A stretch of DNA of 64,000 nucleotides, from IMG/VR virus record IMGVR_UViG_3300029788_000157. One strand, written 5' to 3'. Position 1 is the first letter of the stretch; every line of letters starts with the position of its first letter. Shown in pieces: positions 9,341 through 57,494 of this stretch. Below the pieces are notes generated by a model that was given only the letters and a program-made list of their open reading frames with translations, had not been told where the DNA came from and did not search any database. A program made the translations under genes and the position numbers. This DNA comes from a virus.

Positions 9341-9801
9341 AGTAATCTATCAACAACCTGATTGATTAATCTGCTGTCTGCTTTTCCTTTTAATTTCGGC
9401 ATAATATTTTTCATAACCATCCCTTTAATCTTTGGACTGATTTTTACATTGACTCCTGTAAGCTCAATAAGTTCACTCTCAATATATTTTTCAAGCTCAT
9501 TTTCAGTCATTTGAGTAGGTAAATATCCACTTAAAATTCCAATTTTAAGTGTAGTAGAAGCATACAAATCAGTATTTTCCTTGCCCTTTAAAGCATCTTT
9601 TGTCTGATTGAGCTGTTTAACCTCTTTCTGAATTGCCTGAAGAATAACATCATCAGGAATATCTTCAGTAACATTGGTCGGATTCTTTTCTTTTACAATA
9701 GCTTTCGCTTTATCGACTACCATCTTTAACACATCTCTTTTCTCTGTGTCTTTGTTCTTCATAGCAGTCTTAATCTCTTCTTTAATCTGTAAATATAACA
9801 T
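9331..9801 (-). CDS. GatB/YqeY domain protein
   Basis: 156 aa with an overall YqeY-like pattern. Confidence 0.5.
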   Translation of the reverse strand: MLYLQIKEEIKTAMKNKDTEKRDVLKMVVDKAKAIVKEKNPTNVTEDIPDDVILQAIQKEVKQLNQTKDALKGKENTDLYASTTLKIGILSGYLPTQMTENELEKYIESELIELTGVNVKISPKIKGMVMKNIMPKLKGKADSRLINQVVDRLLNN

Positions 9802-11829: not shown

Positions 11830-12978
11830 TTACTCTGTTAATAATTGAATCTGCTTCTGCATTTCACGTATAACCTTATCAGTTATATCTGTTGTAATAT
11901 TGTCTGGTAGAGTAATTCTTAACGACTTTACTGCTTCTTCATCAGACAATCCTATAGCTTTCAATACATGAGATGGTACTGAGGAATGTGAATTACAAGC
12001 TGAACCAACGGATACATATATATCACACAAATCCAACAAGTATATCATTGCTTCCCCCATTACATTTTGATTAAAAGTAATATTGATATTATTGGGAAGT
12101 CTGTCAGTATATTGACCATTAAGCTTGCAACCAATTTTATCTAACAATTCACCAATCATATAGTCTCTTTGTTTTATTGTTGTAAGATATTTTTTCTGTT
12201 TCATATCTACAGAACATAATTCAACTGCTTTAGCAAATCCCATTATATAAGGAAGGTTCTCTGTTCCACCTCTTAATCCATTCATTTGACTACCGTAAAT
12301 CAACGGACTGATTTTTACATCTTCTTTTTTATATAAGATACCAATTCCTTTTGGTGTACCAATCTTATGTCCACTGGCACTCAACATATCAATTTTAGAT
12401 GCCTTCACATCAATTGGAATATGACCAAAAGCTTGTACTGCATCAGTATGAAATATTGCTCCATATTTATGTACAGTTAAAGCAATATCGTGAATATGTT
12501 GAATTGTTCCAATTTCATTATTTGCATATTGAATAGACACTAAAATATCTTCTCCACTTTTCTGTGAAATCACATATTTTAAAGTATCTTCTAAAGCTCT
12601 TAAATCAATACAACCGTTTGTATCAACATCTATAAAGTGAACATCAACTCCAATACCATCCACACATGACAATATAGATTTATGTTCGATTACAGAAGTT
12701 ATAACTGAAGGTATTCTACCCTTTCTCAAACGATTTTGTACAAAGCCCTGTATCGCCCAACAATTACTTTCGCTTCCACAACTGGTAAAATATACTTCAT
12801 ACATTTCTGAATTAAGGAAGTGTGCTACTGTTTCTTTTGCAGATTTTAATGCATTAGCAGCTTCTTGAGCTGGACTATATAAAGATGATGGATTATACCA
12901 CATATCCATATAAGAATAAATTGTATCTAAAACCTCTTTCTTTGGTTTAGTTGTTGCTGCTTCATCCAGATATATCAC
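11830..12978 (-). CDS. iscS: cysteine desulfurase (class V aminotransferase, IscS/NifS-like)
   Basis: 382 aa; PLP-lysine motif SASGHK; overall IscS-like layout. Confidence 0.8.
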   Translation of the reverse strand: MIYLDEAATTKPKKEVLDTIYSYMDMWYNPSSLYSPAQEAANALKSAKETVAHFLNSEMYEVYFTSCGSESNCWAIQGFVQNRLRKGRIPSVITSVIEHKSILSCVDGIGVDVHFIDVDTNGCIDLRALEDTLKYVISQKSGEDILVSIQYANNEIGTIQHIHDIALTVHKYGAIFHTDAVQAFGHIPIDVKASKIDMLSASGHKIGTPKGIGILYKKEDVKISPLIYGSQMNGLRGGTENLPYIMGFAKAVELCSVDMKQKKYLTTIKQRDYMIGELLDKIGCKLNGQYTDRLPNNINITFNQNVMGEAMIYLLDLCDIYVSVGSACNSHSSVPSHVLKAIGLSDEEAVKSLRITLPDNITTDITDKVIREMQKQIQLLTE

Positions 12979-36049: not shown

Positions 36050-36230
36050 CTAGACAAGAAGTTTTAGATGTGCTAAAATATGGTTGCACAAATATACCTC
36101 TTGTTGGTAATTTAGATGCTGCCTTCGATAGTCGCTCGCCAAAGTCATTATCGAAGGTATTTTTTATTGTATGGACATAATACCATAAATCAAAATGTTT
36201 TGCAAGATTATTTCGAACAAGTGTTCTGTC

Positions 36231-39164: not shown

Positions 39165-39959
39165 TTACATATATTCTAAACCAAGTTCTACAGAATAATA
39201 CATATCGGCTACTTCTTCATCCTGTAAACCGATATATTTCATTGTTACCTGTGTGCTGGAATGACTAAAGCAACATTGTAACATAACTAGAGCTTTCTGC
39301 TTATCTTTGGCATTATGCCAACACCAATAACCCCAGCTCTTTCTAAGACTATGAGAACCAATGTTCTGTACAATACCAGCTTCTTTTGCTGTATCACTTA
39401 TAATTCGCCACAACGATGCTACAACAATAGGTTTCTCTCCTTTTCTGGAGGTAAATAAATACTCATTAATATTATCGTAAGGATATTCAGATAAATAATC
39501 TTGTACTGCTTTTTTTACAGTCTGATTAAAATAGAGTTTAACGAATTTACCCTGTTTTCTCTGCTTCATCGGTTGTAATACATAGACATCTTTAAATGTA
39601 CCATCTTTATTCAAAAAGAATGACCATTTAAGTGTTCGCAAATCACTTGCACGAATCCCCACATTCATACCAATAAAAAATAGCAGTCTATTTCTATATG
39701 CAATCTGTCTTTTGTTATCGTCTGGTGCTTCTGCAATATGCTTATCAAATATCTGCACCATAGCAGCAATATCTTCCTCTGTCTTAAAAGCATAAACTTC
39801 AGAACTCTCTCCTGATTGTTTATTACAATGAGTACGCTTAACGCTGCCATCTTTATTATACAGTTTTTCGGGCTTTCTCTGGGCTTTCCCATCAACAACC
39901 ATAAGTTGAATCACATTTGAATTTTCACTCTGCTCAATAGCAGCGTTTGTTATATTCAT
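39165..39959 (-). CDS. tyrosine recombinase (phage integrase-family catalytic domain)
   Basis: Catalytic R in IRASDL, HSLRKSWG (HxxR) and a C-terminal Y in TMKYIG. Confidence 0.65.
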   Translation of the reverse strand: MNITNAAIEQSENSNVIQLMVVDGKAQRKPEKLYNKDGSVKRTHCNKQSGESSEVYAFKTEEDIAAMVQIFDKHIAEAPDDNKRQIAYRNRLLFFIGMNVGIRASDLRTLKWSFFLNKDGTFKDVYVLQPMKQRKQGKFVKLYFNQTVKKAVQDYLSEYPYDNINEYLFTSRKGEKPIVVASLWRIISDTAKEAGIVQNIGSHSLRKSWGYWCWHNAKDKQKALVMLQCCFSHSSTQVTMKYIGLQDEEVADMYYSVELGLEYM

Positions 39960-48886: not shown

Positions 48887-48917
48887 CCACTCACATTTTT
48901 ACAATCGGACTTGTGAC
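48887..48917 (-). promoter_or_regulatory. motif C (spacing 19)
   Basis: ccactcacatttttacaatcggacttgtgac. Confidence 0.35.
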
Positions 48918-49013
48918 CGCCTTCGGTATGTTTAACCCTGATAAGATTTTACACGTATTGCAAATAGTATATACGCAACTTATAACCACATGGGTAGCAC
49001 TCAACTATTTTAG

Positions 49014-49035
49014 TGTATAACCTTATCAGTTAGTA
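49014..49035 (-). promoter_or_regulatory. motif A, followed by motif C and then a gene
   Basis: gtgtataaccttatcagttagt. Confidence 0.4.
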
Positions 49036-49216
49036 AAAAGATAAAAGGAAAAGGAATATTCACTTTCCTGAAGCGTTACTTTCTAAAGTGGACAAGTCAC
49101 ACCTTATACGGACTACTTCAGGCACTTATTAAGTTATCAATGTGCAGTTACAAACAACTTTTTGCTTCGCTTAATTGCTTTGCTTTGTTCTTTGTATCTT
49201 TATACTATCATATCTT

Positions 49217-49234
49217 TATGTAGTTGTCAAGTAG
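49217..49234 (-). promoter_or_regulatory. sigma-A-type promoter overlapping operator; first of two tandem leftward promoters at the hub
   Basis: tatgtagttgtcaagtag. Confidence 0.45.
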
Positions 49235-49368
49235 TTATTTTAACTTTTTTAAAAAGTTTTTTGCTGCTTTTCAACTGCTTTTTATATGATGTTTTAAAGG
49301 TACTTTACAACTCCGCTTTGTTTTCTTGCGTTGTCTTGTTTGTTTGTAGCTTTATATTATCATGCTTT

Positions 49369-49388
49369 TATGTAGTTGTCAACTACAA
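49369..49388 (-). promoter_or_regulatory. sigma-A-type promoter (TTGACA-N17-TAATAT) within the palindromic operator; second tandem leftward promoter
   Basis: tatgtagttgtcaactacaa. Confidence 0.45.
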
Positions 49389-49439
49389 ATTTATATTTTT
49401 TTCAATTTATTTTTTGGGGTTGTTTTTCTGCTTTTATTC

Positions 49440-51200
49440 TTTCCAGATTATTATATATAATTTGTTTCTGCTTTTCTTTTCTATGGGGTTTATTTAAGCT
49501 TTAAAGGGCTTTTATTGTTTTAATGTATATTATATAGGGTTATGGGGTTATATTGATTGTATAGGGCTTTAAAGGCTTTTAAAGGGGTATAAAGGTATAT
49601 AATAGGGCTTGTATAGGTGTATAAGGTTGTACAATGATATAAAAGGGATATAAAGCAGCATACAAGGGATATAAAAGGGCTTCAGGGGGTGGAGCTGGAA
49701 AGAATGAAAAGAGGAAAAGAAAAGAAAATATAATTGCTTTATTGTTTGGGTTTATGGGGTATGGTATGAGGTGGAGGGGTGGACTGTATAAGGGTATAAA
49801 GTGGAGATTATAGGGTTGTTTGTGGGTATGTTTAGGTGTATTTGTGGGGGTTGTATGGTATTATATGGGGTTATATTTATATAAAAGTGGGGGAAAGTAT
49901 GGAAAAATGGGAGTTTTTTGTGGGTTTTTAGCTGCTTTTTTGTGTGGGAGTGGGTGGAAGTCTGGAAAGTTTGGAAGGGGTGGAGGGTGTAAAGGGGTTT
50001 ATTTTATGGGGTTATGGAAGTATCTATATAAATTTTTTGAGCTGGAAAGAATAAAATAATAATCGTTATTATTTTCTGAAAACTTCTATATTTGTTATAC
50101 ATATAGTTATGAATACTATATGAAACAATATTCTATACTATGGGAGGGGGTATTTATATAAATTGAATGTGATAAAAACACAGTCTTTCACATTGAAAAA
50201 ATTAAATCCTTAAAACAAGGGGGTAGGGGGCTATTTTACAAATATTTTTTGATTTGAGCCGACCAGCAGCCGACTGTCTGATAAAACTCTTCCCAACCAA
50301 AAAATTTTTTACACTTATCTTTCATTCTAAATCATCCCAAATCATCCCAAATTACTAAAAATCATCAACATATAACCTAACATTATCTCAACACTCAATC
50401 CACTATTCTCCCTTTATCACATCAACATATATCTTTATGCACAACGGTACAATCAACGGTACAAATCCATCTCTTACTCTCTTATTTACCAAATTATCTA
50501 TCAGAAATCATCTGTTTTTCCTGAATCATATTCCAAATTACAATTCATTCCAACTTATTTACACTACAATCAATATACCAATCTAATCTCATTCTATTTC
50601 AAGCCTAACAAATACCCTCTTATCTTATCCTATCTAAAATACCTAATTTATAATACCATTTAATACTATCTCAACATTCTTAAATAGTTCCAAATATTCA
50701 AACTTAATATCCAGAATATTATTATTCCTCTTTTATTCTTCCTCTATCTCTCTTACCAGAACCGATTCAAATAGCTCAAATTAATCATATGAAACAATCC
50801 AATATCAACTACATTCTAACTACAAGTATATTTTAATCCTTCGCCAGAGAACTTTATTTAACAGAATCTTTATTAAAAAGTATTTAAAATAAAGTTCTAT
50901 TTTTGCTTCTACCGTTAATTATTTCCGTTAATTTATATTCTACCTTAATTTCAATACTTTCTAAATTTTTACCGTCTAATTCGATTTTACATAAAATAAA
51001 GTAATATGGTTTTTACCGTTATTTTCAATCATTTTCGAAGTTATTCATAGGTATCCAATAAGTATCTATTCGTAAGTATCTATTCATTCTTAACTATTCA
51101 TCAAATACTTTGATTACTTTACATAGGTTACTTCCTAAATTTGAGAAAAATCTCGTATAATAATTTTAGGCATCACTTTTAATGTCACATGGCAACAAGA
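49440..51200. other. non-coding hub with mirrored strand composition: plus strand is C-poor and G-run-rich to ~50230, then G-poor and C/A-rich; contains iteron-like short repeats. Candidate replication origin / divergent early control region.
   Basis: No credible ORF over 2.3 kb. G-runs (ggggtggagggtgtaaagggg) on the left; atcccaaatcatcccaaat, ggtacaatcaacggtacaa, gtaagtatctattc x2 and taccgtt repeats on the right. Leftward and rightward gene blocks diverge from here. Confidence 0.5.
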
Positions 51201-51281
51201 TTTTTAACCTCATCTCTCGCCAGAGAGATAACTATTCTTATTGTAATAGGTATCTTATATGTTTAGAACTGCAAAAACGTG

Positions 51282-51342
51282 ACAAGATTTGTACCAGCTT
51301 TTCATACCTTGAGAAAAAGCAGGTACAAGATTTGTACCAGCT
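51282..51342 (+). promoter_or_regulatory. two 18-bp direct repeats (iterons) ACAAGATTTGTACCAGCT, each containing the inverted repeat GTACAA..TTGTAC, upstream of the rep-like gene
   Basis: Copies at 51282..51299 and 51325..51342. Confidence 0.5.
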
Positions 51343-51401
51343 ATTGCGTTTTACCTATAATGTGATTATTTGATAGTGAAATATATTATCTTTCTTGGCG
51401 A

Positions 51402-52286
51402 TTGGAGGTGATTAACATTGCTGAAACAAAAAGTGAATACATACCTGTGCAATTAACAGGGGATGCTGGGAAGTATATTACTATCCCATCTTCTATTATC
51501 TTAAACAAGGATATGGATGTCATGCGTGTTGCAGCTTATTCATTTTTTATGTTTCGAAGAGGATTAGACAGTTGTTTATATTTTTCAATCAATGCAATGA
51601 TACATTGGTTCAACAAAAAGCCCAACAGGAATAAAGGACGTATCAATGATAAATTACTTGGGGTAATTAACGATTTAAAGGACTTGGGGTATTTAACATA
51701 TCCTGAAGATGCATTTACCAAAACAAGTAAAGGTACTGCTCCTATTTGGGAACAATTTGTAGAAGCTTCTTTTGACACAGTTAGTGCTGCACAAGAAAAC
51801 AATCATAATAGATTTGCTATTATTTATCTTGATGAGATAAAGGCTATTATGAATTATCAGGGTAATCCTAAAGATGTGTATTTGAACAGTTTTTCATTAT
51901 TGTTGGTATTTGCTTATTTGCGAATGTCGATTATGCGAAGGTCTAATCAGTATAGATTGGACGAAGATATTCTGGAAAAGCAGATACAATTTCCTGAAGC
52001 TTATAATGATTATTATAAAGATATGGCTGATGAATTGGGAGTGTCTGTACGCACATTTGGAAAAATTGTAAATTGTCTCAGAGATGAATTACATTTGATT
52101 CAGTTCGAGGAAATTGGAAGAACAAAATATATAACTGAAGATGGAAAAGTAAAATGGAAAACCAATCATACTATATTTTGTAATTCCTATAAACGAGAGC
52201 GTGATTATCTACTCACTGATTCAGAATCATATTGGATTACTGAAATAGCAAATAAAAAACAAAAAATTGGAATCAAAGGAGATTAG
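51402..52286 (+). CDS. putative replication initiator / origin-binding protein
   Basis: First gene of the rightward block, directly downstream of 18-bp iterons; track start is TTG embedded in SD GGAGGTG (true start uncertain). Confidence 0.4.
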   Translation: MEVINIAETKSEYIPVQLTGDAGKYITIPSSIILNKDMDVMRVAAYSFFMFRRGLDSCLYFSINAMIHWFNKKPNRNKGRINDKLLGVINDLKDLGYLTYPEDAFTKTSKGTAPIWEQFVEASFDTVSAAQENNHNRFAIIYLDEIKAIMNYQGNPKDVYLNSFSLLLVFAYLRMSIMRRSNQYRLDEDILEKQIQFPEAYNDYYKDMADELGVSVRTFGKIVNCLRDELHLIQFEEIGRTKYITEDGKVKWKTNHTIFCNSYKRERDYLLTDSESYWITEIANKKQKIGIKGD

Positions 52287-52289
52287 AAT

Positions 52290-52472
52290 GTGGATACTTT
52301 AGCAAATAAAATTTCTGATAGTTATTATGAATTATCAGAACGAGATTTTTACCCTCCAGAAGATAAACGCACTTTTCGTTCTGGTGTGTTGAATACTGAT
52401 GGAGATAGTTATGAAGAATTTGCACAAGACTATAATGATATGTGTGAAGAGGAAGAAATGTATGAATTATAA
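52290..52472 (+). CDS. small acidic protein
   Basis: GTG start 6 nt after SD AAAGGAGAT. Confidence 0.35.
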   Translation: MDTLANKISDSYYELSERDFYPPEDKRTFRSGVLNTDGDSYEEFAQDYNDMCEEEEMYEL

Positions 52473-52516: not shown

Positions 52517-55366
52517 ATGTTAGATACTCAAATCAATATATATAGTGTGGATACAGGTAACTTTTATAGTAATCACGAAGCCCATCTACACTGGTTAAAT
52601 CACAAATTGCGTTCCGAAAGAAATGCTTTGGTGCAAAAATCAAAAGATATAACCAGTGAACTTTTTAAATACGGAATTGAGCAAAGTGATTTGGATACAA
52701 TGTTAAAATCTGAATATGATTATTCAGGTTGGGGCGAAGATACAGAACGTATTCAATCTCTTGGAAATGAATATGTCAATCTTAAAGAATTGATTGTCAT
52801 GAAAAACAGAAAAATCAAGTATAGCAAAGATACTCTTTTGCAACTTCTGGAAAATAAAGTCAATGCAAATATTGTTTCTGATGGAAAGCATCATATTCGT
52901 GAATTAAAGGAAAATGATGTTTCTGATAAAAAAATAATTTCTGTGTTTGATTCTTCTTTTACAAGAATGATACACGCACAACCTAATGAACTGTCAGAAG
53001 ATTTTATGGTTGTTCAGGTATATTATTTTGATATAATCAAGGATTTAATATACTACGGATTTACATATAAGGGAGAAAAGTATATTTACTTTACTTCTTC
53101 TGCTGGTCAAATTCGAACAAAGAAAACTGTATTCATTAAAGAGTCAACATGGAAAAAATATGAAAAAACAATTATGTGTGGACTAACAATAGATGTCATT
53201 AATTCAAAAGGTGGTAATAATCCTAATAAGCATTTGGCATACACTGCATTAACCAATTCTGCTACAGATGCATGGGAAGAATTTGATATTGACAAAACGA
53301 TTGTTATTGATGATTTTGAGACAAATGTGTTTGGAACATATGACTTAGTAGATGATGCAGACTATTCTATCAAGCGTGTATCAGATTATGTGCCAATTAC
53401 TCATACTGATGGAGCTGGAATGATGTTACCTCATATGGGTAAAAATAGAATGGTTCGTTTACCTTGGGTAAAAGGACTGCTTGGAAAATTTGATTATGTT
53501 CATTTTATAGAGGTTAATGGTTGCTCTCCTATCATCAAGGACATTTATGGAAAAGAACATGATATTATCGCAGAAGGCATTGAAATCATATTTACAAAAT
53601 CACAATTCAAGATGTGGAAGTATTATGATTCATGGGAGCAATACAAAGAGTATTATAAAAAATATCATTGTACTGCTGGATATACTAATCTTGAAGAGGA
53701 TAGAATAAGAAATGCAAAAATCAATTATCAAATGCTTCAGACATTAACCGATATTACTGATGAGGAGATATTGGAAATTGCAAAACCATCTATCAATAAA
53801 TTGCAAAATCTTTGTTCTTCTGTTGAGAACATTAAAGATGCATTTGGTATTACCCCTTATAATTTACATAAAAATTCGTTTCAAAAGTCTGTAGAGCTAT
53901 ATCCTGACCTATTGAATGACGAATATGTAAAAACACAACTGAGGAATACTAAAGATAGCATGATAAAACAGTATAAGTCTGGAAAATTACAGATTTATGG
54001 AAAGTATACTTTTTTACTTCCTGATTTTTATGCAGCTTGTCAATATTGGTTTCAGGGAATAAAAGACCCTGAAGGATTATTGGCTGACCAAGAAGTATTC
54101 TGTTGGTTATTTAGAAAATCAGATAAGTTGGATTGTTTACGTTCTCCTCATCTTTACAAAGAACACGCAATAAGAAAAAATATTGCATATTGTAAAAATG
54201 AACGTCAAAAACTTATAAGAGAATGGTTTGATACTGATGCCATTTATACCAGTTGCCATGACTTAATTAGTAAAATTCTTCAGTTTGATGTAGATGGAGA
54301 TAAGTCTCTTGTGGTGTCTGACAGGAAATTTATTGAAGTCGCAGAAAGAAATATGAAAGGGATTGTTCCTTTGTATTACAATATGCGAAAAGCATCCCCC
54401 ACTCTTCTAACATCTGAGAATATTTATAATGGATTGGTGGCTGCTTTTACAGGTGGAAATATTGGATTGTATAGTAATAATATTTCTAAAATTTGGAACA
54501 GTGAGGTATTTATTTCAGGAACACCAGAGGAAAAACAAGAAGCTATTGACCTTGTTAAACTACTTTGTATGGAAAATAACTTCGTCATTGATTATGCGAA
54601 AACTTTATATAAACCGCAACGTCCAAAAGATGTTCATGAAAAAATCATTGCTCACACCAAAGAGAATGTTCCTCATTTTTTCAAATATGCAAAGGATAAG
54701 GATGAAGTACAGGTTTCAAATATAAATGCAAGTTTTGTAAATAAGCTAAATAGCATTATCCCAAATCCGAGAATTAATTGTAGGTCATTAAAATTAGGAA
54801 CTATAGATTATAAGTTGCTTATGCACAATCCCGATATTGAATGTCGTGTTGATTTTACTGATAGAGGAAAATTAATAAAGGAAAAGACTGACCCCTTGAT
54901 TGTAAAATATTGTGAGTTGAGTAGCAAACATCATTTTCAAATCAATCTCAACTATAAAGAAAATCTTTCTCCTGATTTAATGAAACATTCTCAAATAGTA
55001 CAAGATTTATTATATAAAAATATTTCAAATGAAATAAAAACAGCTTTATCCGAATTTGGATATAGTGAATCAGAAATAGCTGACATACTTGTAAAATATT
55101 TATACGGAATTAAGAAAAGTAAACACAAAGTTGCATTATGGTTATGTTATGGAAATATCATTTATGAAAATATAAAAGAAAATGGATGTAAAAATAATCA
55201 TAAAAGTATTCAGTGTGTAGATTGCGGAGAATGGTTTGATGTGTTGACAAAAAATAATAATACTTGCAGATGTCCAGATTGTTATGAAGAATATAGAAAA
55301 AATCGTAAATTAGAGACTCAAAGAGCAAGAAGAAACAAAATGAAGTCGGGTCAAAAAATTTTATAA
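52517..55366 (+). CDS. large DxDGD-motif protein; candidate YonO-like single-subunit RNA polymerase (alternative: primase-polymerase)
   Basis: 949 aa; QFDVDGDK resembles the two-barrel RNAP catalytic DxDGD motif; C-terminal CVDCG...CRCPDC zinc ribbon; YopX also present elsewhere in the window. Confidence 0.4.
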   Translation: MLDTQINIYSVDTGNFYSNHEAHLHWLNHKLRSERNALVQKSKDITSELFKYGIEQSDLDTMLKSEYDYSGWGEDTERIQSLGNEYVNLKELIVMKNRKIKYSKDTLLQLLENKVNANIVSDGKHHIRELKENDVSDKKIISVFDSSFTRMIHAQPNELSEDFMVVQVYYFDIIKDLIYYGFTYKGEKYIYFTSSAGQIRTKKTVFIKESTWKKYEKTIMCGLTIDVINSKGGNNPNKHLAYTALTNSATDAWEEFDIDKTIVIDDFETNVFGTYDLVDDADYSIKRVSDYVPITHTDGAGMMLPHMGKNRMVRLPWVKGLLGKFDYVHFIEVNGCSPIIKDIYGKEHDIIAEGIEIIFTKSQFKMWKYYDSWEQYKEYYKKYHCTAGYTNLEEDRIRNAKINYQMLQTLTDITDEEILEIAKPSINKLQNLCSSVENIKDAFGITPYNLHKNSFQKSVELYPDLLNDEYVKTQLRNTKDSMIKQYKSGKLQIYGKYTFLLPDFYAACQYWFQGIKDPEGLLADQEVFCWLFRKSDKLDCLRSPHLYKEHAIRKNIAYCKNERQKLIREWFDTDAIYTSCHDLISKILQFDVDGDKSLVVSDRKFIEVAERNMKGIVPLYYNMRKASPTLLTSENIYNGLVAAFTGGNIGLYSNNISKIWNSEVFISGTPEEKQEAIDLVKLLCMENNFVIDYAKTLYKPQRPKDVHEKIIAHTKENVPHFFKYAKDKDEVQVSNINASFVNKLNSIIPNPRINCRSLKLGTIDYKLLMHNPDIECRVDFTDRGKLIKEKTDPLIVKYCELSSKHHFQINLNYKENLSPDLMKHSQIVQDLLYKNISNEIKTALSEFGYSESEIADILVKYLYGIKKSKHKVALWLCYGNIIYENIKENGCKNNHKSIQCVDCGEWFDVLTKNNNTCRCPDCYEEYRKNRKLETQRARRNKMKSGQKIL

Positions 55367-55527: not shown

Positions 55528-55842
55528 ATGGGTACAGTTAATAAAGAAAAGTTCACAAAAGAACGTCTTATTAAGCGTATTGCGGATGCAGAGCATAAAG
55601 ATATTGCTCTTGTACGTTCTATATATAACTCTTTAGAAGATACTGTAGTTGAAGCACTTGCTTATGCTACACCTGAGACAGATGTTTCAGTAAAATTATT
55701 TGAAGGAATTACTCTTGAAAGTTCTCATGTTCCTGAGAAGGTTAAGAAAAATAACCTTACTGGAAAGAACATTACTGTTGCGGAACATATTAAAGTAAAA
55801 GCTAATATTACACGCAATTATCAGGAAAAGATTAATTCTTAA
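55528..55842 (+). CDS. hup: HU/IHF-family DNA-binding protein
   Basis: 104 aa with the HU-fold pattern (N-terminal helices, beta-arm with conserved R/K/G). Confidence 0.6.
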   Translation: MGTVNKEKFTKERLIKRIADAEHKDIALVRSIYNSLEDTVVEALAYATPETDVSVKLFEGITLESSHVPEKVKKNNLTGKNITVAEHIKVKANITRNYQEKINS

Positions 55843-55953: not shown

Positions 55954-56026
55954 GGCTCTATGGTATAAAGGCAATTATATCCGACTGTCTCTCGGAAGAT
56001 TTGGGTTCGATTCCCAATAGAGTCGC
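55954..56026 (+). tRNA. tRNA-Asp (GTC)
   Basis: Hand-folded: acceptor GGCTCTA/TAGAGTC, anticodon loop CTGTCTC. Confidence 0.55.
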
Positions 56027-56084
56027 TTATTGGAATGTAGTTCAACAAAAGTTGGATGATTTCGTTCCAATTATTCCCTTATAG

Positions 56085-56147
56085 CTCAGTTGGTAGAGCG
56101 TCTGGCTGTTAACCAGAATGTCACAGGTTCAAGTCCTGTTGGGGGAG
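56085..56147 (+). tRNA. tRNA-Asn (GTT)
   Basis: D-arm AGCTCAGTTGGTAGAGC, anticodon loop CTGTTAA, T-loop TTCAAGT. Confidence 0.55.
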
Positions 56148-56152
56148 CTTAT

Positions 56153-56224
56153 AGGAAGTTGGTGTAATGGCAACACAACAGTCTCCAAAACTGTAAGTTT
56201 AGGGTTCGAATCCTTAACTTCCTG
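56153..56224 (+). tRNA. tRNA-Trp (CCA)
   Basis: Acceptor AGGAAGT/ACTTCCT, anticodon loop CTCCAAA. Confidence 0.6.
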
Positions 56225-56230
56225 TTTTAT

Positions 56231-56314
56231 GGGCGAGTATGCAAAATGGTGAAGCGAGCTGACTGTAAATCAGTGACGTAAGATACATTGTGGGTTCGAA
56301 TCCTACCTCTCCCA
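56231..56314 (+). tRNA. tRNA-Tyr (GTA), long variable arm
   Basis: Anticodon loop CTGTAAA, long variable arm, T-loop TTCGAAT. Confidence 0.5.
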
Positions 56315-56320
56315 TTTATA

Positions 56321-56400
56321 GTGAAAGTATTTTAAAAGTAGAATATCCGAATTTATGAATAAGACAACGGAAGGTAGAGGTTCAAATCCTCTCTTTCACT
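56321..56400 (+). tRNA. tRNA-like gene with aberrant/expanded anticodon arm (isotype unassigned)
   Basis: Perfect 7-bp acceptor GTGAAAG/CTTTCAC and T-arm AGAGG-TTCAAAT-CCTCT, but the region between is 8 nt too long for a standard anticodon arm. Confidence 0.3.
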
Positions 56401-56405
56401 AATTT

Positions 56406-56488
56406 GCTGGTGTGGTGGAATTGGCAGACACATTGGGTTTAAGCCCCAATTGCATATAGCAGTACGAGTTCAAATCTCGTCACCAGCA
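56406..56488 (+). tRNA. tRNA-Leu (TAA), long variable arm
   Basis: Acceptor GCTGGTG/CACCAGC, anticodon stem TTGGG/CCCAA with loop TTTAAGC. Confidence 0.55.
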
Positions 56489-56522
56489 TTGTGCTTCTCT
56501 ACATAATGAGAACCTTTATTTT

Positions 56523-56593
56523 AGAGTGTGTGGTGTAATGGTAGCATACGTGATTTGGGGTCATGGGGAGCAGTTCAAATCTGACACATTCTA
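56523..56593 (+). tRNA. tRNA-Pro (TGG), slightly degenerate T-stem
   Basis: Anticodon arm CGTGA-TTTGGGG-TCATG resembles bacterial tRNA-Pro(UGG); acceptor AGAGTGT/ACATTCT. Confidence 0.45.
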
Positions 56594-56600
56594 TTTCTAT

Positions 56601-56673
56601 TGCGGAATAAAGCAGCGGTTAGCTTACCAGTCTCATAAGCTGGGTGTCGTGAGTTCGAATCTCACTTCCGCAT
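56601..56673 (+). tRNA. tRNA-Met/Ile2 (CAT)
   Basis: Acceptor TGCGGAA/TTCCGCA, anticodon loop CTCATAA, T-arm GTGAG-TTCGAAT-CTCAC. Confidence 0.55.
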
Positions 56674-56748
56674 TAATAATGGTATAACTTTGCGGAGTTA
56701 TAGCAGATGAAAACCTACTGCATTAAGGTAAGCAATGACCTTAATTAT

Positions 56749-56821
56749 GGCTTCGTGGTCAAATGGTTAAGACACCACTCTTTCAAGGTGGGATTGATGG
56801 GTTCGATTCCCTCCGAAGTCA
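56749..56821 (+). tRNA. tRNA-Glu (TTC)
   Basis: Acceptor GGCTTCG/CGAAGTC, anticodon loop CTTTCAA. Confidence 0.5.
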
Positions 56822-56825
56822 TTAT

Positions 56826-56897
56826 GGTGTATTTAGTTTAATGGTAAAACGCTAGATTGTGATTCTATGGTTGAGGGTTCGATTCCTTCAATACACC
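56826..56897 (+). tRNA. tRNA-His (GTG) with encoded G-1:C73
   Basis: G-1 paired to discriminator C; acceptor GTGTATT/AATACAC; D-stem GTTT/AAAC; anticodon loop TTGTGAT. Confidence 0.55.
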
Positions 56898-56901
56898 TTT
56901 T

Positions 56902-56984
56902 GGAGAGTAAATCTATATGGTATAGAGCCTGTCTGCTAAACAGTGCGTACCGAAAGGTATTTAGTTCGATTCTAATGCTTTCCG
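56902..56984 (+). tRNA. tRNA-Ser (GCT), long variable arm
   Basis: Anticodon loop CTGCTAA, long variable arm, acceptor GGAGAGT/GCTTTCC with two G-U pairs. Confidence 0.5.
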
Positions 56985-56987
56985 TAT

Positions 56988-57060
56988 GGGATTGTAGTTC
57001 TAATGGGAGAATAACTGCTTTGCAAGCAGAAGGTTGTGGGTTCAAATCCCACCAGTTCCA
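56988..57060 (+). tRNA. tRNA-Ala (TGC)
   Basis: G3:U70 identity pair present; anticodon loop TTTGCAA; T-arm GTGGG-TTCAAAT-CCCAC. Confidence 0.55.
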
Positions 57061-57064
57061 TTTT

Positions 57065-57146
57065 GGATGTGTAGCCAAGCGGTATGGCAACTGGCTTTTA
57101 ACCAGTATATCGAAGGTTCAAGTCCTTTCACATCCACTATTGCTCC
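57065..57146 (+). tRNA. tRNA-Lys (TTT)
   Basis: Acceptor GGATGTG/CACATCC, anticodon loop CTTTTAA. Confidence 0.55.
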
Positions 57147-57151
57147 TATAG

Positions 57152-57223
57152 TGATAATGGCAGCACGTTTGACTTGTAATCAATTAGTCACAGTTCGAAT
57201 CTGTGTGGGAGCTTATGCATTAT
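57152..57223 (+). tRNA. tRNA-Thr (TGT)
   Basis: Anticodon loop CTTGTAA, T-arm CACAG-TTCGAAT-CTGTG. Confidence 0.5.
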
Positions 57224-57226
57224 TGG

Positions 57227-57298
57227 TCTAAAGGCTATGATTTCTGATTTCCAATCAGACGATATGGGTTCGATTCCCATATAATGCTTGTATCCGTA
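57227..57298 (+). tRNA. tRNA-Gly (TCC)
   Basis: Acceptor GCATTAT/ATAATGC, anticodon arm TCTGA-TTTCCAA-TCAGA. Confidence 0.55.
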
Positions 57299-57301
57299 TA
57301 G

Positions 57302-57366
57302 CTCAATGGAATTAGAGCATCGTTCTTCTAAAGCGGTTGTTTTCGGTTCGAATCCGAATACGGATG
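57302..57366 (+). tRNA. tRNA-Arg (TCT)
   Basis: Acceptor ATCCGTA/TACGGAT, anticodon loop CTTCTAA. Confidence 0.5.
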
Positions 57367-57371
57367 TTTAT

Positions 57372-57461
57372 GGAAGTGTACTCAAACTGGTGAAGAGGTC
57401 TGTCCTGAAAACAGATAGGTCGGTGTGAATCGGCATAGGGGTTCGAATCCCTTCGCTTCCG
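57372..57461 (+). tRNA. tRNA-Ser (TGA), long variable arm
   Basis: Acceptor GGAAGTG/CGCTTCC, anticodon arm TCTGT-CCTGAAA-ACAGA, long variable arm. Confidence 0.55.
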
Positions 57462-57494
57462 CTATTAAAATTATGCAATGAAAGGACTGAGAAA

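Follow-up and report, generated by a model that had tools for sequence, protein, structure and literature searches.

A candidate genome-end junction between arms of mirrored strand composition in an SPβ-like phage of gut Clostridia

In the Bacillus phages SPβ, phi3T and Goe11-14, restriction mapping and read coverage place the 'genome opening point', or packaging start, between yonR and yonP. SPβ-type phages have a fixed high-coverage block of ~250 bp in this yonR|yonP gap, and packaging proceeds towards yonO. According to reviews the pac sequence, the packaging mechanism and the replication origin of SPβ are still undefined. In Psychrobacillus phage Perkons, which also encodes YonO, PhageTerm identified 264-bp direct terminal repeats. 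Here we compare with these systems a virus sequence from IMG/VR (record IMGVR_UViG_3300029788_000157), of which a stretch of 64,000 nucleotides (the window) was analyzed. Between two divergent gene blocks the window carries a non-coding hub of 2.3 kb (49100-51420), in which a G-rich, C-poor arm is followed, across a neutral centre, by a C-rich, G-poor arm. On balance we think that the hub probably is the junction region of an SPβ-like phage, made up of early promoters, a genome-end or packaging site, arms under selection and a replication (Rep) module with a rep-like gene (51402..52286).

The skew switch and virion ends in YonO phages

We used yonO as the synteny anchor in every comparison between loci. 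The window gene (52517..55366, plus strand), 230 bp 3' of the rep-like gene, encodes a single-subunit RNA polymerase of the YonO type (949 aa) that matches Pfam RdRP and phrog_8308 (E 8e-245). Identity is 43% with SPβ YonO and 52% with the Clostridium phage D-1873 homologue, and relatives at 55-66% identity occur in genomes and metagenome-assembled genomes (MAGs) of gut Clostridia and Lachnospiraceae. Past yonO the window encodes an HU-like protein, a tRNA array, a YonJ-like exonuclease, YonG, the large terminase and the portal, which is the SPβ gene order. With a YonO RNA polymerase as its neighbor gene, the hub belongs to what is, judged by gene content, an SPβ-like temperate phage of gut Clostridia, and the shared gene order makes the hub the equivalent of the yonR|yonP gap. 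Compared as DNA, the hub had no similarity to deposited phages. The loci compared include SPβ (L001), a B. rugosus prophage (L149) and a close relative with flanks ~82% identical to the window (L173).

The base counts and a skew scan of the 64 kb bear out the mirrored strand composition that the original prediction had described. On the plus strand the G arm (49440..50060) contains A180 C25 G189 T227 (30.4% G, 4.0% C) and the C arm (50291..50900) A225 C145 G22 T218 (23.8% C, 3.6% G), with binomial p values of 2e-45 and 1e-15. Only these two arms contain 200-bp segments with an absolute GC skew above 0.6. In 600-bp segments the skew reaches +0.79 and -0.75 in the hub and stays within +0.32 to -0.45 in the remaining window. 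Within the window, C-free DNA extends furthest at 49785-49931 (147 bp) and G-free DNA at 50281-50438 (158 bp), both in the hub. As also predicted, the hub is non-coding. It has no credible open reading frame (ORF): a 111-aa ORF (49162-49497) overlaps the promoter repeats at the left edge, and coding under recoded stops was rejected, no long frame opening with TGA and/or TAG as sense but only with TAA recoded. Rfam 15 covariance models had no match at E<=1 in 48900-51450. An assembly artefact was rejected, since at least nine independent assemblies contain this hub (90-97% identity).

Perkons has a similar arrangement. In yonO orientation its early block is followed by a G-rich stretch (+0.56), ~200 bp of neutral skew, the terminal repeat, a C-rich stretch of ~600 bp (-0.45 to -0.67) and, further downstream, yonO. 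The terminal repeat lies between the G-rich and C-rich stretches, and the virion ends of Perkons are thus at the skew switch. In SPβ the switch is weaker (+0.35, then -0.64). The hub is syntenic with these experimentally mapped termini, the Perkons repeat and the SPβ opening point. Like them, it occupies the gap between a leftward early block and the genes just 5' of yonO, it switches from G-rich to C-rich, its centre measures ~235-265 bp and a C-rich box opens the unique sequence. It differs in that the arms are longer and more extreme than those of Perkons (~+0.56/-0.67) and SPβ, that a Rep-like gene with operators and iterons is added, and that its termini are predicted, not mapped.

To extend the comparison we located the strongest G-to-C switch in 83 de-replicated loci that extend for 5 kb or more to either side of yonO. 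It was 0.2-6 kb 5' of yonO in 52 of them, compared with 27.6 expected from position (p=4e-8). Across the family no compositional feature is conserved more widely than the C-rich arm on the yonO side, and the G arm varies in strength. The distant YonO-like phages CB457P2 and TR-TP1 (~25% identity) are without arms.

At the switch the window has a conserved junction module (50209..50310, plus strand), consisting of motif A, a T-run, a ~33-nt spacer and motif B. For motif A the sequence is GGGGGTAGGGGGCTATTTTACA (50219-50240); the C-rich arm opens with motif B, CTGTCTGATAAAACTCTTCCCAACC (50274-50298). The module is single-copy, always on the yonO-sense strand and fixed in its A-B spacing. Almost every lineage encodes (a)TAtGGGGGTAnnTTTACA ~40-70 bp ahead of the C-rich arm, then a T-run, a ~45-nt spacer and a C-rich box, which is GTGGTACATCTATTCCTCAACA in the gut clades and ATAGCACTTCCATTTCCACAC in Bacillales. 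An nhmmer profile of the module, built from 34 de-replicated sequences, was searched against both strands of 2.85 Mb (E<0.01). All 66 matches were on the yonO-sense strand, 0.7-7.6 kb 5' of yonO. They include lineages outside the training set of the profile, and the window match has E=2e-9. Locus L100, from Mediterraneibacter hominis NSJ-55, is among the carriers of the module.

The right end of the Perkons terminal repeat lies 44 nt past GGGGGTAT and 2 nt short of the motif-B-like CATCTATCCACACA, which puts its boundary between the two motifs. In the window phage, as in the Perkons and SPβ-type termini, a motif of the GGGGGTAT type is found ~45-50 nt before the right boundary of the repeat, which is a predicted boundary in the window. 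Judged by the module profile and the Perkons boundary, conserved sequence is present at the right end of the repeat.

On the left side, Perkons, SPβ and the B. rugosus prophage have in common a motif TCTT(a)CG..ATTCC, 208-221 bp 5' of motif A, that was found in Bacillales phages only. Its position gives SPβ a repeat of ~250 bp, as in the reported block. The SPβ block should then extend over ~8073-8322 of L001, its right end just before ATAGCACTTCC, and the comparison suggests that the '~250-bp block' of SPβ-phage coverage is a short terminal repeat like that of Perkons.

For the window phage the left boundary comes from an assembly. Contig L182 (124,010 bp, 31x coverage, 97% identical to the window) begins at 50041, where the G arm meets the centre; the G-run of motif A follows 187 bp further on, compared with 211 bp in Perkons and ~200 bp in SPβ. 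This contig start, the neutral skew of the centre and the distances in the relatives predict a short direct terminal repeat of ~235 bp (50041..50275, plus strand), the right boundary of which is placed by alignment to the end of the Perkons repeat. Two short assemblies (L171 and L172) begin at 50187 and 50251. In a second clade three contigs begin at the switch point, within 50 bp of each other. In a third, three contigs of 54-131 kb, two of them near genome length (125-131 kb), end within ~100 bp of arrays of the G5 motif. Contig L062 was searched for a terminal repeat at its other end, and its start sequence occurs once only. Phage BUCT083 was deposited as circular and is uninformative on ends.

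An inverted repeat, AATGTGA-N15-TCACATT (50166..50194, plus strand), lies ~40 bp 5' of motif A. Gut-clade relatives have an equivalent inverted repeat with altered stem bases that covary by eye (T-A / T.G / C-G). It varies in sequence and position between lineages.

Perfect LexA (Cheo) box cores (GAAC-N4-GTTC) are found within 250 bp of motif A in six of the 34 lineages (L156 and L116, which are prophages of the Neobacillus/Brevibacillus type, L035, L010, L092 and L067), mostly 14-24 nt after the TACA of the module or just 5' of it. Their density here is 0.41 per kb, compared with 0.002 per kb elsewhere (~200x), only one core being found in the remaining ~600 kb. SPβ has a one-mismatch core, GAACagatGTAC (L001 ~8306), that is absent from its published SOS-box list. 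The LexA cores beside the module suggest that, in some lineages at least, the module is a site of transcription initiation. The hub of the window phage has no Cheo box, and LexA control was rejected for this phage.

Three other identities were considered for motif A and rejected. Motif A is not the published YonO promoter: the primers of Forrest et al. place the YonO-dependent start site at L001 ~12300-12500, where there is no G5-TTTACA motif. It is not the MrpR operator SPBRE, as an SPBRE-like 25-mer is found 400 bp downstream, at the yonP sigma-A promoter, and is multi-copy, being common to the yonP, yonX and yonT promoter regions of SPβ. Nor is it an ordinary sigma-A promoter, since the alignment has no conserved -10 at the right distance from TTTACA. 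In the L013-L021 clade (L020 1-150; L018 ~2100-2300 bp 5' of yonO) the G5 motif is present as 3-4 tandem ~28-bp repeats TATATGGGGGGTTGGTTTTTTTGAACGT, a variant 3' half, TATTAAAAC, replaces TTTACA and the compositional arms are weak.

The module and the compositional arms are two undescribed features shared with SPβ; both are absent from the published Perkons and SPβ-phage papers, and a literature search on strand-asymmetric sequence beside phage termini returned no relevant work. They provide a concrete terminus or packaging-signal candidate for SPβ, a temperate-phage model for 50 years. The candidate signal is common to SPβ, soil Bacillales phages and a large uncultured clade of gut Clostridia phages, and can be mutated in B. 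subtilis 168. Module and skew switch together could be used to orient and linearize metagenomic SPβ-like genomes.

Selection on the arms and their possible roles

Between the window and L173 the blocks that align are the promoters (to 49415), the centre (50029-50324, 71.5% identity) and all sequence from 50808 on, including 50808-51025 (74% conserved). The arms cannot be aligned, yet those of L173, which differ in length, keep skews of +0.77 and -0.82.

We compared polymorphism among four strains. Variable sites make up 3.4-4.7% of the flanking genes, where transitions are balanced, and 16% of 4-fold degenerate sites (A/G 11.2% per purine site, C/T 12.8% per pyrimidine site). In the G arm 13.7% of sites vary (A/G 46, C/T 10), and in the C arm 20.2% (C/T 83, A/G 13). 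Transitions that preserve the composition equal or exceed the neutral rate, with 12.5% in the G arm and, in the C arm, 22.9%, an excess with p=0.006. Those that break it are depleted 2-3x, at 4.0% vs 12.8% in the G arm (p=8e-4) and 5.3% vs 11.2% in the C arm (p=0.04). G and C each make up ~8% of neutral 4-fold sites, compared with 30% G or 24% C in the arms (3-4x), where the complementary base is ~4%. All four strains retain the base values of the arms. The depletion together with the enriched base indicates that selection keeps the strand composition of the arms and not their sequence, which is free to turn over. The arms are a rare clean case of selection on strand-specific base composition that can be measured in natural strain variation.

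Short repeats are present within and around the G arm. TATGGGG(T) units form an irregular array in one orientation (49482, 49541, 49753, 49864 and 50005), with this arm containing five of the six copies found on the plus strand of the 64 kb, and are similar to the 5' half of motif A. GGGTGGA units are found in the arm as well. A 28-nt inverted repeat, 79% complementary, brackets the arm (49432-49459, TTTTATTCTTTCCAG..., and 50029-50056, ...CTGGAAAGAATAAAA), with a third, direct copy GAGCTGGAAAGAATGAAA at 49692; contig L182 begins exactly at the right-hand copy. An ancient inverted duplication as the source of the two arms was rejected, k-mers common to one arm and the reverse complement of the other being no more frequent than in shuffles.

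If the hub is a junction region, its left edge would fire leftward from twin sigma-A-type early promoters with a palindromic operator. The centre (~50041-50275) would become the short direct terminal repeat of the packaged DNA. The module (GGGGG-N3-TTTACA, fixed spacer, C-rich box) would lie across the right boundary of the repeat as the site at which the packaging enzyme recognizes and cuts concatemers, with packaging then proceeding rightward towards yonO, by homology to the SPβ phages. The right part (50440-51400) would contribute an operator, iteron-like GGTACAA/AACGGTA sites and, next to them, the gene of a RepE/pi-like initiator. Read outward from such a junction both ~600-bp arms are C-rich and almost G-free, and the 3'-ending strand of the packaged genome would thus be G-rich and C-poor just inside both repeats.

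For the arms we tentatively propose action at the RNA level, a suggestion that we hold to be plausible though short of probable. Outward transcripts would be unstructured, C-rich, G-poor and untranslated, and so possible substrates of the termination factor Rho, which takes its RNA by base composition and independently of sequence. Transcription started at the junction would thereby be kept out of the early genes on one side and the rep/yonO genes on the other, the arms serving as insulators like lambda tL1/tR1. The composition of a Rho zone (at least ~80 nt that are C-rich, G-poor and untranslated) is present on both sides, with outward C/G counts of 145/22 and 189/25 over ~600 nt. Enrichment of one base with exclusion of its complement fits a Rho role, as does the free turnover of the sequence. 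The position of the arms fits also, between the junction and the next promoters: P2 and P1 on the left and, on the right, the promoter of the rep-like gene here or, in SPβ, the MrpR-controlled sigma-A promoter of yonP downstream of the C arm.

The lambda pL/pR region with tL1/tR1 is similar in having a central control element, operator-controlled divergent promoters and outward transcripts of Rho-loading composition on each side. It differs from the window in that no outward promoters, nut-like sites or antiterminator were identified in the latter, and in that the window centre coincides with genome ends and not with an immunity region. More broadly, the family may have a terminus cassette, consisting of a recognition module at the repeat boundary and composition-only arms that serve as Rho-loading insulators or as telomere-like G-rich 3' strands. 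We regard this generalization as possible but rather doubtful. If true, whether as Rho-loading insulators or as end protection, the arms would represent a general sequence-free design principle for phage genome ends.

A number of observations weigh against this reading of the hub. The published view of SPβ phages is headful pac packaging and not fixed terminal repeats. The terminal repeat of the window phage is extrapolated, as are its boundaries, and the left-boundary motif is not recognizable in the gut clade. Contig ends can have another source, assembly breaks in hypervariable or repetitive sequence, and the arms are of the hypervariable kind; the three ends found here are at different positions. 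The Perkons motif is without the TTTACA half, and the module profile missed Perkons. The G arm is weak in many lineages while the C arm is general, so the mirror may not be one functional unit. Promoter-like matches across the hub equal the shuffle expectation (15 vs 15.0), with no promoter firing outward from the centre among them, and Rho dependence of the arms is deduced from base composition. The 294-aa product of the rep-like gene itself has no Pfam or PHROG match and no sequence-level Rep_3 match. The hub has no regular array of at least 3-4 iterons (17-22 bp), only CAACGGTACAA x2, four dispersed opposite copies and two operator repeats.

The main rival for the arms is a function at the level of the DNA ends, which we consider unlikely. 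Following injection and 5'->3' resection the exposed 3' strands, made of G, A and T only, could not pair stably within or between themselves, and annealing would be limited to the terminal repeat. In a variant of this idea a telomere-like G-rich 3' strand would shield the ends from host exonucleases. Termini placed as in Perkons would give the 3'-ending strand just inside both repeats the required G-rich, C-poor composition, and the left arm contains short G4-tract repeats (TATGGGGTTAT). However, avoidance of pairing needs no 30% G, AT-rich DNA being enough. The arms would begin not at the physical ends but ~235-260 bp inside them, many relatives have a weak G arm and the two G-rich strands have no motif in common. 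Known Firmicute Chi sites contain C and cannot occur on a C-poor strand. A Chi-like decoy was likewise rejected, with no C-containing motif common to the two G-rich strands.

The T7 concatemer junction provides a further parallel for a DNA-end role. There a short repeat (160 bp) lies beside strand-biased, non-coding arrays of degenerate short repeats, and early promoters (A1-A3) fire inward from a few hundred bp inside the end. The polarity is the same: the inward-reading top strand to the right of the left terminal repeat is C-rich, with a skew of -0.64 over ~150 bp. Unlike the arms of the window, the CCTAAAG-type arrays of T7 are C-rich on the same strand on both sides, so that T7 was rejected as a case of mirrored arrays. 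They are also much shorter and have a recognizable heptamer, in a phage with another terminase, RNA polymerase and virion type.

We also think it unlikely that the whole hub is a bidirectional replication origin, with arms resulting from replication strand bias, R-loops or G-quadruplexes (G4). G-rich non-template strands favor R-loops. The hub is adjacent to a RepE/pi-like initiator gene, it contains GGTACAA x5 and AACGGTA x4 (0.26 expected for each; ~15-20x enriched), and AT-rich stretches are found at 50000-50200 and 50800-51100. The lack of a defined origin in SPβ-type phages leaves room for one here. R-loop priming, however, requires inward promoters at the outer edges of the arms, and none stands out. 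SPβ and Perkons have arms and module without this Rep gene, and in them these features coincide with virion termini. The skew of the hub changes from + to -, the opposite of a replication origin, and the change from - to + in the flanks follows gene orientation. One DnaA box with one mismatch is found in the hub (50435) and no cluster. No canonical G4 (four G3+ runs, loops <=7) is present on either strand of the 64 kb. The G-run sequence cited earlier as G4-competent, ggggtggagggtgtaaagggg (49977-), has three G3+ runs and reaches a fourth only with a 10-nt loop. The original prediction had read the hub as an origin plus a divergent early control region. Of this, the early control region stands and a Rep/iteron module is plausible, but the arms, the G-runs and the centre do not hold up as an origin. 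The mirrored arms and centre are better explained as a terminus or packaging junction.

It is quite improbable that the arms encode functional long non-coding RNAs (ncRNAs), either two divergent C-rich or two convergent G-rich transcripts acting as decoys, YonO regulators or leaders. The LexA boxes beside the module imply a transcription start in some lineages, and SPβ-type phages carry unannotated ncRNAs. Against this, the arms have no Rfam match and no convincing promoters, their sequence is unconserved between close relatives, and RNA free of G or C, and so without G-C pairs, is unlikely to have a conserved fold. Least probable of all is a neutral mutational footprint, for example of cytosine deamination on a single-stranded or non-transcribed strand: the arms do evolve fast compared with the genes, mainly by transitions and without conserved sequence, but deamination would reduce a GC content that stays at 34% (G arm) and 27% (C arm), the enriched base exceeds its neutral 4-fold level, composition-breaking transitions are specifically depleted, and the composition is kept across unrelated arm sequences in hosts from Bacillus to Lachnospiraceae.

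Early promoters and the rep-like gene

The left edge of the hub has two tandem leftward promoters of the sigma-A type with operator-like sequence, in agreement with what had been predicted. P1 (49183..49262, minus strand) has a -35 TTGACA (49230-49225), a 17-nt spacer and a TG-extended -10 TAGTAT (49207-49202). P2 (49335..49414, minus strand) has a -35 TTGACA (49382-49377), the same 17-nt spacer and TG plus TAATAT (49359-49354). The two are copies of an 80-nt direct repeat, 152 bp apart, and a perfect palindrome, GTAGTTGTCAACTAC (49372-49386), overlaps the -35 of P2. Both are conserved in L173, P1 at 82%. From these consensus matches P1 and P2 are predicted to transcribe, in the leftward direction, the gene block on the minus strand. 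A divergent early control region with twin sigma-A-type promoters and a palindromic operator is thus a supported, sequence-based assignment for the left edge.

The rep-like gene (51402..52286, plus strand) encodes a protein of 294 aa. An AlphaFold2 (AF2) model with a predicted local distance difference test (pLDDT) score of 92.5 and a predicted template modeling (pTM) score of 0.90 suggests a double winged-helix fold like that of the RepE and pi initiators of plasmids. We found 180 homologues, several of them on contigs of 113-161 kb, and winged helix-turn-helix (wHTH) Pfam matches in 20-33 of 54 members. By tblastn the deposited phages encode no homologue. As SPβ, Perkons and D-1873 are among those without one, the Rep module appears to be an addition of the gut clade, independent of the arms.

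A promoter and operator (51282..51361, plus strand) precede the gene, with a -35 TTGTAC (51332-51337), an 18-nt spacer and a -10 TATAAT (51356-51361). The iterons that had been reported right before the gene were confirmed as 21-nt repeats (51282-51302 and 51325-51345) that are 95% identical and 43 bp apart. A perfect palindrome, GGTACAAGATTTGTACC (51322-51338), in the second repeat overlaps the -35. L173 has two repeats at the same position with another palindrome, GACAACTGTTGTC, and encodes an 82%-identical protein. The difference in both palindrome and protein suggests that site and protein co-vary.

The inverted-repeat operator over this promoter has a GGTACAA half-site in common with candidate iterons inside the C arm, a tandem CAACGGTACAA x2 of 12-bp period (50442..50464, plus strand), one copy of which is conserved in L173. 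Two of the repeats described earlier were recovered, this tandem (containing ggtacaatcaacggtacaa) and a tandem TAAGTATCTATTCG x1.9 (51059..51085, plus strand). The third, 'taccgtt x3', is instead two exact copies (50910 and 51014) with the variants TTCCGTT (50923) and TACCGTC (50970). These are four AACGGTA-type sites in opposite orientation (50908..51020, minus strand) within AT-rich DNA (GC 22-24%). Judged by the shared half-site, the 294-aa protein may bind the hub repeats. The enrichment of GGTACAA and AACGGTA makes a plasmid-type replication module in 50440-51400 plausible, and together with the rep-like gene this part looks from its sequence like a replication or maintenance module specific to the gut clade.

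Plasmids with RepE (F), pi (R6K) or other Rep_3 initiators are similar in having an initiator with the double winged-helix fold predicted for the 294-aa protein, an AT-rich stretch nearby and an inverted-repeat operator over the rep promoter that has its half-site in common with upstream direct repeats. They differ in having 4-5 regular iterons of 19-22 bp, in place of two tandem 12-bp repeats and dispersed opposite copies, and in having DnaA boxes and sequence-level Rep_3 matches. The module of the window is also found within an SPβ-like phage of ~130 kb.

Where the window has TAAGTATCTATTCG, L173 has an unrelated array of 5-6 copies of ATCAGTATGTATT-type 15-bp repeats (9660-9760), and the difference looks like a fast-changing iteron-like array 5' of the rep-like gene. 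Just 5' of the rep operator is a terminator-like hairpin, ATCTCTC-GCCA-GAGAGAT (51212-51229), with a T-rich tail (51212..51239, plus strand); it is identical in L173. A TATAAT (51156-51161) ~50 nt ahead of the hairpin is also kept in L173. These two elements (51130-51239) could represent a short rightward transcript or a small RNA.

Other genes of the window and its relatives

A 60-aa ORF (52290-52472, plus strand) between the rep-like gene and yonO is at the position of SPβ yonP. This gene is also called in the independent assemblies L171 and L173.

The tRNA array (55954-57462, plus strand) contains 15 genes by ARAGORN and 16 by Rfam, between the HU-like gene (55528-55842) and the YonJ-like exonuclease gene. 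At this position SPβ has a 1.7-kb non-coding stretch with the mapped YonO-dependent start site and an 'unannotated ncRNA'. In the yonN-yonK gap of SPβ (L001 13381-13446), just 5' of yonK, we found a match to the Rfam DUF3800-VIII RNA above gathering score (47.5 bits, E 1e-6), which may belong to the unannotated ncRNA of Forrest et al.

On the minus strand (39165-39959) the window encodes a 264-aa protein with matches to phage integrase families (phrog_216, E 9e-38). For an integrase it is short, and it may instead be a repressor of the MrpR/YopR type, which has a tyrosine-recombinase fold. Perfect Cheo-box cores are found within this gene (39355) and at 36215.

Close YonO relatives in L092, L161, L163, L148 and L124 are from MAGs or assemblies titled Paludibacteraceae, Bacteroides, Treponema or Streptomyces. 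None of these is a plausible host of an SPβ-like phage of the Firmicute type, so that binning or contamination errors are likely.

In several phages of the SPβ group (H3-H8, H24 and L169, which is BUCT083) yonO is split; tblastn found two pieces with an inserted ORF. The insert in BUCT083 is a GIY-YIG nuclease. The late genes of L173 include HNH and NUMOD3 genes. Invasion of yonO and the late gene block by homing endonucleases appears common.

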